DNA of 64,000 nucleotides, taken from Promethearchaeota archaeon. GTDB taxonomy: Archaea > Asgardarchaeota > Lokiarchaeia > Sigyniarchaeales > SOKP01. Under the pieces are notes generated by a model, which did not search any database, had not been told where the DNA came from, and worked only from the letters and a program-made list of their open reading frames with translations. How positions within the stretch are numbered: the stretch's first letter is position 1; each line of letters starts with the position of its first letter. Below are positions 41,129 through 42,950 of this stretch, piece after piece. A program made the translations under genes and the position numbers. The DNA lies in assembly GCA_016839765.1 (NCBI GenBank), contig JAEOTP010000043.1, forward strand, positions 32,001 through 96,000, read 5' to 3'.

Positions 41129-41881
41129 TTATTTCTGATCTACTTTAATAATACTTCCTTCCTCAAATGTAATAACCTTATCAGCAAGTTCAATTAAATA
41201 ATCATCATGAGTCGCAATAATTATTGTTTTTCCCTTATTTTTCATATCCTTAAAGAGATCCCTAATAAACAAGCTAGTCTTTTGATCTAAATTTGCTGTT
41301 GGCTCGTCTGCTAGTATTATAGGAGGATTATTAGCTAATGCGCGTGCTATTGCTACCCTTTGCTGTTCACCCGCAGAAAGCTGAAAAGGAAGATGTTCTC
41401 TTCTTTCTCCTAGACCAATTCTTTTTAATAGTTCAACAGATCGTTCTCTTTGTTCTTTTAGAGTCATCCCTGCTAAATTCATAGGGAATATTACATTTTC
41501 CTCGGCAGTCAAGGTGCTAATAAGATTATAATTCTGAAAGATAAAACCGGAATTTATTAATCTAAAAGTAGCTAAAGTTTCCTCCTCCATATCAGTAATA
41601 TTTACCCCACTATTATAAATAGTTCCTGAATTTGGAGAATCTAAACCTCCAATTAAATTTAACAGCGTAGTTTTCCCAGCACCAGAGTGTCCTTTAATAA
41701 CAATAAATTCGCTCTCTTCTACATTTAAAGACACATCATTCACGGCTCTAACTACAAAATCACCAATTTCATAGTCTTTAATTAGGTTTTTGGCGATAAT
41801 TATGGTATTTCCTTTTTCTAATTCTGGTTTAAAATTAGGCTCTTCCATTCTGTGCTCGTTGACTATTATATCTTTTTCCAT
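41129..41881 (-). CDS. ABC ATP-binding protein (LolD/MacB-like)
   Basis: GHSGAGKTT, LSAGEQQRVAIARAL, ADEPTANLD. Confidence 0.93.
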   Translation of the reverse strand: MEKDIIVNEHRMEEPNFKPELEKGNTIIIAKNLIKDYEIGDFVVRAVNDVSLNVEESEFIVIKGHSGAGKTTLLNLIGGLDSPNSGTIYNSGVNITDMEEETLATFRLINSGFIFQNYNLISTLTAEENVIFPMNLAGMTLKEQRERSVELLKRIGLGERREHLPFQLSAGEQQRVAIARALANNPPIILADEPTANLDQKTSLFIRDLFKDMKNKGKTIIIATHDDYLIELADKVITFEEGSIIKVDQK

Positions 41882-42036
41882 ATCTATTATATAATTTAAT
41901 ATTTTAAAGCTATTTTTCTAATAATTCATAGCTACTTAAAAATATTAATTGAAGGTTTTTGAATACATTTCAATATTATTATGTTTTTGGATATAATAAA
42001 TAAGATTTATATATCATCTTTTCATATTTCATCATT

Positions 42037-42208
42037 AGAGGGAAGTCGTGGATAAGTGTAAAAATATATAATATCCCCTAATTTCCTAATTAAACATCCA
42101 CGCGATTCGCGTGGCAAGGGTTACATGGTAACTAAGTCTTAGGTTTTATCCCCAAACTTAACCTCCTCGGAGGTTTCCTTTTCCCGACTCCTCTCTTCTC
42201 CTTTTTTT
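42037..42208 (+). ncRNA. Candidate standalone structured ncRNA (~165 nt), family unknown
   Basis: TTTATATA at 42006-42013; terminal stem 42037-42048/42185-42196; several internal hairpins; T7 tract at 42202-42208. Confidence 0.65.
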
Positions 42209-42314
42209 AAAGCTTCGTATAAACAAACCATTTTGTTAAAATTTATACATTATTAAGATTTTTAATAGTTAAGGTATATAATTATACAACGCAATTGAAT
42301 TAGGGATAATTATT

Positions 42315-42950
42315 ATGGATTTTGAGAAATTAACCGAATTAATTATAGAGTTAGAAGTAGATGATATTGCAGATGCTGTGAAAGAAGCTTTAGAAGTAGA
42401 TGATAAGGATCCATTTGATGTATTAAATGCATTAACAAAGGGTATGGATGAAGTTGGGAGAAGATATGAGGAAAAAGAGTATTATTTAACTGAATTAGTT
42501 CTAGCTGGAGAGACGATGAAAGAAGCATTTAAAATACTTCAACCAGCTTTAGCTACGTCTGACAAATCACAGGTTAAGACTAAGATCATTTTGGCTACAG
42601 TAAAGGGAGATAACCATGATATTGGCAAAAATATCCTTGGATCCTTGCTTTTGAGCTCAGGATTTGAGATTTATGACCTTGGAATGGACGTTGACGAAGA
42701 TACTATAGTGCAAAAGGTTAAAGAAACGGGAGCAACCATTGTAGGGTTAAGTACACTTCTAACTATGACTGTAGAACACATCAAAGTCGTTCATGAGGCA
42801 TTAAAAACAGCGGGGTTACGAGAACAAGTCAAGCTCATCGTCGGTGGTGCGCCACTCAACATGGAACTTGCCAAGAAACTCGGAGCTGATGACTTTGCAG
42901 ATGATGCTGTCGAGGGTGTAAAACATATTAAAAATTTTGCTGGAATGTAA
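42315..42950 (+). CDS. Methyltransferase corrinoid (B12-binding) protein, MtbC/MttC-like
   Basis: LTKGMDEVG cap domain, GDNHDIGKN, VGLSTL, VGGAP. Confidence 0.92.
   Translation: MDFEKLTELIIELEVDDIADAVKEALEVDDKDPFDVLNALTKGMDEVGRRYEEKEYYLTELVLAGETMKEAFKILQPALATSDKSQVKTKIILATVKGDNHDIGKNILGSLLLSSGFEIYDLGMDVDEDTIVQKVKETGATIVGLSTLLTMTVEHIKVVHEALKTAGLREQVKLIVGGAPLNMELAKKLGADDFADDAVEGVKHIKNFAGM

Follow-up and report, generated by a model that had tools for sequence, protein, structure and literature searches.

A family-wide, single-copy noncoding RNA gene in Asgard archaea with predicted membrane-protein mRNA targets

The window, by which we mean the whole 64,000-nt stretch of Promethearchaeota DNA analysed here, carries a genuine noncoding RNA gene that is family-wide, present in single copy and covered by no Rfam model. 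The interval 42037-42208 is very probably a functional RNA gene independent of its neighbours, and the RNA, previously undescribed, is by kind most likely an ordinary trans-encoded base-pairing sRNA. As to function, comparison of sequences leads us to consider it reasonably probable that this sRNA masks the ribosome-binding sites of membrane-protein mRNAs. The literature searched contained no description of this RNA and none of a regulatory small RNA in Asgard archaea. The gene is family-wide and single-copy, its architecture is clear, and its predicted targets are concrete: a membrane enzyme of the polyprenol/steroid-reductase family and MFS exporters of the drug/metabolite type. It would be the first such sRNA candidate with concrete targets in Asgard archaea, and its homologues provide the seed alignment from which a new RNA family could be defined.

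A preliminary description of the window had listed a promoter, a terminal stem, internal hairpins, a CCUAAUU repeat and a T7 run, all of which lie where it had placed them (Table 1), and had read the whole as a new archaeal ncRNA equipped with a promoter and a terminator of its own. That reading is upheld by the lack of an Rfam match, the single copy, the fixed TATA distance, the U-run and the covarying arms. The GGAUA/UAUCC hairpin that it had also named is present in the window sequence but is not conserved in homologues.

Table 1. Positions of features of the RNA locus and its surroundings in the window, and of two genes on other contigs (C6, C60) of the host genome.
Feature	Position	Strand	Basis or remark
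BRE/TATA promoter, AAG-ATTTATATA	42003..42013	+	TATA start 31 nt before first stem base
TATA box, TTTATATA	42006-42013	+	Sequence
P1 terminal stem, 5' arm	42037..42057	+	P1a 42037-42048, P1b 42050-42057; partner 42177-42196
P1 terminal stem, 3' arm	42177..42196	+	Fold and arm-pairing test
P1a, AGAGGGAAGUCG with CGACUCCUCUCU	42037-42048 with 42185-42196	+	12 positions; one A.C mismatch, one G.U
P1b, imperfect extension of terminal stem	42050-42057 with 42177-42184	+	Fold
Core (seed) AAUAUCCCCUAAUUUCCUAAUUAAA, single-stranded, near-invariant	42070..42094	+	Homologue comparison, unpaired probability
Repeated CCUAAUU	42077-42091	+	Sequence
Weak AU hairpin UAAUU-UCCU-AAUUA inside core	42079-42092	+	UCCU is the loop
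Inserted hairpin CCACGCG-AUU-CGCGUGG	42098..42114	+	Clade-specific: window's near relatives only
Hairpin GUUAC/GUAAC	42120-42132	+	GUUAC arm (42120-42124) clade-specific
Second conserved block AUGGUAAC	42125..42132	+	Paired here with clade-specific GUUAC at 42120-42124
Third block (C)UAAAUUUUAUCCC-AAA, U-rich	42143..42156	+	Conserved in g1, g21, g22, g27
P3 hairpin AACCUC-CUCG-GAGGUU	42160..42175	+	Helix changes with pairing kept
Pyrimidine spacer UCUCC and U7 terminator	42197..42208	+	T7 run at 42202-42208
RBS of adjacent corrinoid-protein gene, GAAUUAGGGAUAA	42297..42309	+	Partial complement of core
Corrinoid (B12-binding) protein gene, MtbC/MtaC type	42315-42950	+	Start 106 nt downstream of RNA
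Steroid_dh gene, steroid-5-alpha-reductase family (PF02544), 252-aa membrane protein	C6:26006-26761	-	Outside window
Argonaute-like ORF, 768 aa	C60:51-2357 (locus L188)	-	Weak Piwi match

The architecture is shared among relatives, in which the RNA measures 110-180 nt (~165 nt in the window) and whose shortest forms, of ~110-130 nt, consist of P1, a large loop, usually P3, a pyrimidine spacer and a U-run. Conserved across homologues are the promoter, the covarying terminal stem, the 3' hairpin and the U-run. Specifically, of 54 distinct homologues 49 have a TATA-like box whose start is 29-33 nt ahead of the first base of the stem, and a T-run of 4-11 lies within 14 nt after P1 in the 54 homologues measured, the U-run being weaker in three g18 copies and one g1 copy. 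On the plus strand the minimum free energy is -46.7 kcal/mol vs -33.0 +/- 3.7 kcal/mol for 200 shuffled sequences (z -3.75), and none of the shuffles is as good. The minus strand at 42037-42208 is equally foldable (z -3.5), and folding energies over 53 homologues leave the choice of strand undecided; the strand assignment therefore rests on the promoter and the terminator.

In homologues, P1 is a long imperfect terminal stem of 15-20 bp with an outer portion AGAGGG/CCCUCU and an inner portion that varies (GUCG/CGAC, GCCG/CGGC, UUGAGAAAA/UUUUCUCA, CUCGAGAAAA/UUUUCUCG, ACCAAAAAAAGC/GCUUUUGUUGGU and CUCGCGAAAU/AUUUCCGGGA). Because MAFFT and covariance-model (CM) alignments shift the register of this stem—its bulges move from copy to copy—we compared cognate with non-cognate arms in an alignment-free manner. 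Cognate P1 arms pair at a mean of -20.9 kcal/mol vs -15.7 kcal/mol when the two arms come from different RNAs, a difference equalled in none of 5000 permutations; the relatedness of the homologues inflates this result, but its direction is clear. A model-fitted alignment, imperfect in that some rows are misplaced, has 90.7% paired cells vs 49-62% in slid controls, and double changes in 18 of its 20 pairs. P3, which lies near the 3' arm in most homologues and is missing from the g23 and g27 copies, likewise varies with pairing retained (CCUC/GAGG, AGCC/GGCU, AUCUUAA/UUAAGAU, GUCCAAAAC/GUUUUGGAU). Across the collected homologues, then, the arms of the terminal stem covary, and on the strength of these comparisons the stem covariation shows selection at the RNA level.

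Searches against known families returned nothing that would name the RNA. With Rfam 15, no model reached its gathering score anywhere in the window, the interval 41880-42320 gave chance-level matches alone at E<10, and two short homologues gave nothing at E<1. Tested classes could be set aside in agreement with the preliminary description, which had judged by eye that the element is not a tRNA, SRP RNA or RNase P RNA: ARAGORN finds no tRNA or tmRNA in the window, the host SRP RNA sits elsewhere (C33:47569-47807), and the host RNase P RNA lies at C6:6091-6415. The host SRP RNA scores 71.9 bits against the Archaea_SRP model, below the 96.5-bit gathering score and over model positions 67-307 only, and is either divergent or partly matched. 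A MITE or other repeat, which the preliminary description had named as a reading to be checked, is also rejected, since there is one full-length copy in the host genome (3.32 Mb, 96% complete) and one CM match per genome in relatives.

The gene is confined to one family as far as it has been traced. BLAST found homologues in 28 of the 36 genomes of the host genus, and a covariance model built on 12 same-genus homologues matched 76 of the 131 genomes in the host family, each of them exactly once, with positives in g1, g18, g21, g22, g23 and g27. These counts are lower bounds, given that two genomes (G016 and G023) scored negative yet carry the RNA with a hairpin inserted in the core; when insertions at the CCCCUAA|AUUUCC site are tolerated, about 100 copies come within reach. 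A diverged copy occurs in g19, and homologues are present in at least seven genera of this one Asgard family. The syntenic locus of one g20 genome holds no RNA. Beyond the family, the model found no match in 19 genomes from three sister families of the order, and a search of ~265 more genomes of the phylum for a 24-nt core pattern, with up to three mismatches allowed, gave no more matches than chance would. Upstream of the B12-gene orthologue in the sister families there was no recognisable homologue; one genome of sister family f4 (G045, L088:1340-1445) has at this place an unrelated candidate structured element that starts UUAGAGAGGUAAG, ends GCCCUCUAC, contains an internal hairpin GCCUAUAC...GUAUAGGU and does not share the core.

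What is most conserved at the locus is the core. In most homologues, whatever their genus, the segment AAUAUCCCCUAAUUUCCUAAUUAAA has no change or a single-base change, while in the same genomes the neighbouring ABC ATPase protein is 65-75% identical and the FtsX permease ~50-60%. Its predicted exposure is high, with unpaired probabilities of 0.87 for AUAUCCCC and 0.97 for the UCCU loop. The stretch that the preliminary description had labelled a linker is the most conserved part of the RNA and probably the functional one. The hairpins around it are another matter: the CCACGCG hairpin and the GUUAC arm are insertions of the window's own clade, and other lineages have different hairpins, or none, at the site of the former. 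The alternative CGUGG/CCACG pairing proposed earlier can form in the window sequence, but it hangs on this clade-specific insertion and is not conserved.

Insertions into the loop are themselves hairpins and occupy two sites, either after CCUAAUUAAA or between CCCCUAA and AUUUCCUAAUU. At the second site, six loci (L037, L052, L054, L085, L166 and L167) carry a self-complementary hairpin of 25-30 nt; such insertions occur in several g1 and g18 lineages, and four of them end in (U)GAUGAGGA. The inserts of L052 and L054 terminate in UUGGGG, a sequence that might mask the seed's CCCC.

Two further blocks accompany the core. The AUGGUAAC block is kept family-wide, g19 excepted, and the third block, whose conserved form is CUAAAUUU(UAUCCC) at 42143-42156, is reduced to CUAAAUUU in g18. 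One might speculate that the third block is an Lsm/SmAP-type site or a second C-rich seed. A small ORF starting from AUGGUAAC was considered and rejected, because indels between the second and third blocks are not multiples of three; in the window copy, moreover, a stop follows after five codons. The invariance over ~25-33 nt, together with the AUGGUAAC and CUAAAUUU blocks, exceeds what a seed needs and is unexplained by the predicted pairing.

Predicted partners for the core emerged from the pattern search itself, which exposed second loci in many g18 genomes that, on the opposite strand, are gene leaders. These leaders contain AAUUAGGAAAUUAGGGGAU(AU), a perfect complement of 19-21 nt of the core, followed after 2-9 nt by an AUG and an open frame of 420-428 aa encoding an MFS_1/MFS_3 transporter, nearest to the DHA3, Mef and EntS exporters. 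The exact 19-mer followed by AUG occurs in 13 of 54 g18 genomes, each site standing ahead of an MFS_1/MFS_3 gene, and twice in each of G154 and G102, before tandem copies; all other exact 19-mer matches among 135 genomes are antisense to the sRNA gene itself. A conserved AT-rich box lies ~20 nt upstream of the leader motif, which suggests that the g18 MFS mRNA would start at or just before the motif.

The g18 loci L096-L106 (e.g., L098:1508-2805) hold DHA3/Mef-like MFS genes, often in tandem arrays of 2-4, whose short leaders consist entirely of the 19-21-nt sequence antisense to the sRNA core. Among the MFS copies, the one at G089:C55:5107-5970 is a pseudogene with four stops. For the host orthologue of the MFS transporter no complementary site was seen in the sequence at hand, its contig (C96) starting 20 nt before the gene; another host contig, C57, has ...TATATAAAGGAAAAATTAGGAATTTAG, almost a copy of the target motif, at its very end. 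Breaks in the assembly may conceal other target leaders.

In the host genome itself a different gene stands out. When start regions were ranked by the energy of their duplex with the core (6673 candidates), the Steroid_dh gene headed the list (-26.0 kcal/mol; runner-up, -23.6 kcal/mol). Its leader carries UUAAUUAGGAAAUUAGG, a 17-nt perfect complement of the core located 12-28 nt before the AUG (gene and leader together span C6:26006-26830, loci L002/L145). Among g1 orthologues, 12 of 19 Steroid_dh leaders reach -15.5 kcal/mol or lower (e.g., with the motifs AAUAGGAAAUUAGGGAU, AUUAGGAAACUAGGGAU and AAAAUUGGGGAUAU) vs 1.1% of random host start regions, though orthologous leaders are not independent samples. 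This complementarity is absent from the Steroid_dh leaders of g18, g21, g23, g27 and g28. The targets predicted in the host genus and in g18 would therefore both be membrane proteins, but different ones, and because they differ between genera, no single target explains the family-wide invariance of the core.

Two other occurrences of related sequence deserve mention. In a genome of the host genus (G035, L113:~1440-1510), AAUUAGGAAAUUAGGGAUUU lies directly after a TATA-like box in the leader of another transporter-like gene, which starts with TTG and whose N-terminus resembles, by eye, GPH/MFS_2 symporters. In g19, where a compensatory change in sRNA and target was looked for, the only extra hit (G071, L192:480-500) is AUAUCUCUUUAUUUCCUAAUU, which differs at a single position from the variant sRNA core of that genome; it reads in the sense direction, lies immediately past the stop codon of a P-type-ATPase-like gene rather than in a leader, and may be a 3'UTR copy, a paralogue or chance.

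Taken as a base-pairing sRNA, the RNA would work as follows. It would be transcribed independently and act in trans, the terminal stem joining and protecting its 5' and 3' ends and holding a large loop open, so that the loop would display a C-containing single-stranded segment (AUAUCCCC, the UCCU loop and AAUUAAA). Pairing would be initiated by AUAUCCCC and the UCCU tetraloop with SD-like AGGGGAU/AGGA and would extend into the upstream leader; the resulting duplex over the ribosome-binding site would block initiation, or mark the mRNA for decay. In the host genome the target would be the Steroid_dh gene on contig C6, and in g18 the DHA3/Mef-like MFS exporters. Expression of the RNA, pairing in vivo and the direction of regulation are what we infer from these patterns.

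Such a mode of action has archaeal precedent. In Methanosarcina mazei, sRNA162, sRNA154 and sRNA41 are trans-encoded sRNAs that mask ribosome-binding sites. Like them, the RNA described here is a standalone, structured gene of ~100-250 nt that has its own promoter and a U-run terminator, is restricted to one lineage and has a conserved single-stranded segment complementary to the SD/start region of trans-encoded mRNAs. Unlike them—and with no sequence or Rfam relationship to them—it belongs to an Asgard family, presents its seed in a large loop closed by the terminal stem rather than in hairpin loops or at the 5' end, and has an unusually long invariant stretch, with some target matches perfect over 19-21 nt. 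Bacterial sRNAs of the RsaE/RoxS type use C-rich seeds to pair with G-rich SD sequences, and the unpaired C-runs here (AUCCCCU, UCCU, AUCCC) could similarly pair with purine-rich, SD-like AGGGGAU and AGGA; in sequence, structure and domain of life, however, the two are unrelated. The seed here also differs in matching specific leaders rather than a generic SD, because the general SD of the genome is GGAGGUGAU. A general anti-SD mimic was rejected given this SD and a 16S 3' end of GGAUCACCUCC. Genome-wide, ATTAGGGGATAT sites fall mostly within coding sequence (Leu-Gly-Asp-Ile codons) and are uninformative.

Among other explanations, we regard it as unlikely, though worth weighing, that the RNA is chiefly a protein-binding or RNP-scaffold RNA (a sponge or cofactor) in which a protein reads the CCUAAUU repeats, AUGGUAAC and the U-rich blocks, and the mRNA complementarity is secondary or lineage-specific. 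An invariant stretch longer than a usual seed, two further conserved blocks that have no predicted partner, targets that are not common to the genera and the tolerance of hairpin insertions at fixed loop sites would all fit such a role. The paired 5' and 3' ends, large pyrimidine-rich loop and oligo-U end recall Y RNA and vault-type RNAs, but here the loop is invariant rather than the stem, and TROVE/Ro (PF05731) was absent from a search, with positive controls, of the 96%-complete host genome. The gene context, too, indicates no partner protein, and protein binding does not predict exact antisense matches of 19-21 nt placed precisely at start codons in many genomes. Distinctly less probable is that AATTAGGAAATTAGGGGATAT is a DNA operator, a transcription-factor site common to the sRNA and the membrane-protein genes, of which complementarity is a by-product. 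The motif, in double-stranded form a TTAGG direct repeat, is indeed common to the MFS genes, the Steroid_dh genes and this locus, it stands just downstream of the promoters of the MFS and Steroid_dh genes, and sharing it as DNA would yield the same complementarity. At this locus, by contrast, the motif runs the other way and occupies ~+34 to +58 of a predicted transcript that covaries; at least six homologues split it by the 25-30-nt self-complementary insertion, hardly tolerable for an operator, and the covariation of the flanking stem points to selection on RNA.

The setting of the gene raises the question of regulation in cis. Genera g1 and g18 retain the order of divergent ABC ATPase gene, RNA and corrinoid gene, and in some g21 and g23 genomes, too, the B12 gene follows the RNA. 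The preliminary description had placed a B12-binding protein gene ~110 nt downstream, correctly (its start, at 42315, is 106 nt away), and had suggested a switchable leader, in which termination or read-through at U7 would control that gene. Two things speak for this: the conserved order and, in the clade of the window, a ribosome-binding site of that gene with partial complementarity to the core. The RNA also resembles the cobalamin riboswitch (RF00174) in being structured and lying ahead of a gene for a B12-binding protein. We nonetheless hold such a leader or riboswitch to be very improbable, because g22 keeps the RNA without a B12 gene at the locus: six g22 loci, and likewise the g27 locus, have the RNA beside the ABC gene and no corrinoid gene (one g21 locus has the RNA and the corrinoid gene but no ABC gene). 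Neither RF00174 nor any other riboswitch model matched, even at E<10, in line with the earlier statement that the sequence departs from the cobalamin riboswitch consensus. Unlike RF00174, moreover, the RNA has its own terminator, and beyond the U-run, ahead of the corrinoid gene's start, conserved TATA-like boxes mark a separate promoter for that gene. The hairpin on which the proposed switch depends is confined to one clade. The B12-gene ribosome-binding site was set aside as a conserved target, its duplex with the core being modest (-14.0 kcal/mol) and its motif not kept family-wide. This removes a false lead, in that the locus is not a new B12 riboswitch.

Least probable of all, in our estimate, is a precursor of an Argonaute guide, in which the invariant 21-nt segment would be excised or presented, loaded into an Argonaute-like protein and used to silence complementary transcripts or 5'UTRs. 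What makes it conceivable is the near-perfect complementarity over 19-21 nt to the g18 targets and the presence in the host of an Argonaute-like ORF; against it, the segment is single-stranded instead of lying within a precursor duplex, a signal for its processing was not seen, and the Piwi match of the ORF, at 25.6-27.1 bits, is below the Pfam cut-off of 28.9. The nearest solved relatives of this ORF are prokaryotic Argonautes (Rhodobacter sphaeroides Ago and a short pAgo), and by these sequence matches it is a long pAgo-like protein. If the guide reading were true, fully complementary 5'UTRs would be cleaved or silenced in the manner of plant miRNAs, and the prokaryotes nearest to eukaryotes would possess an endogenous guide RNA encoded in the chromosome.
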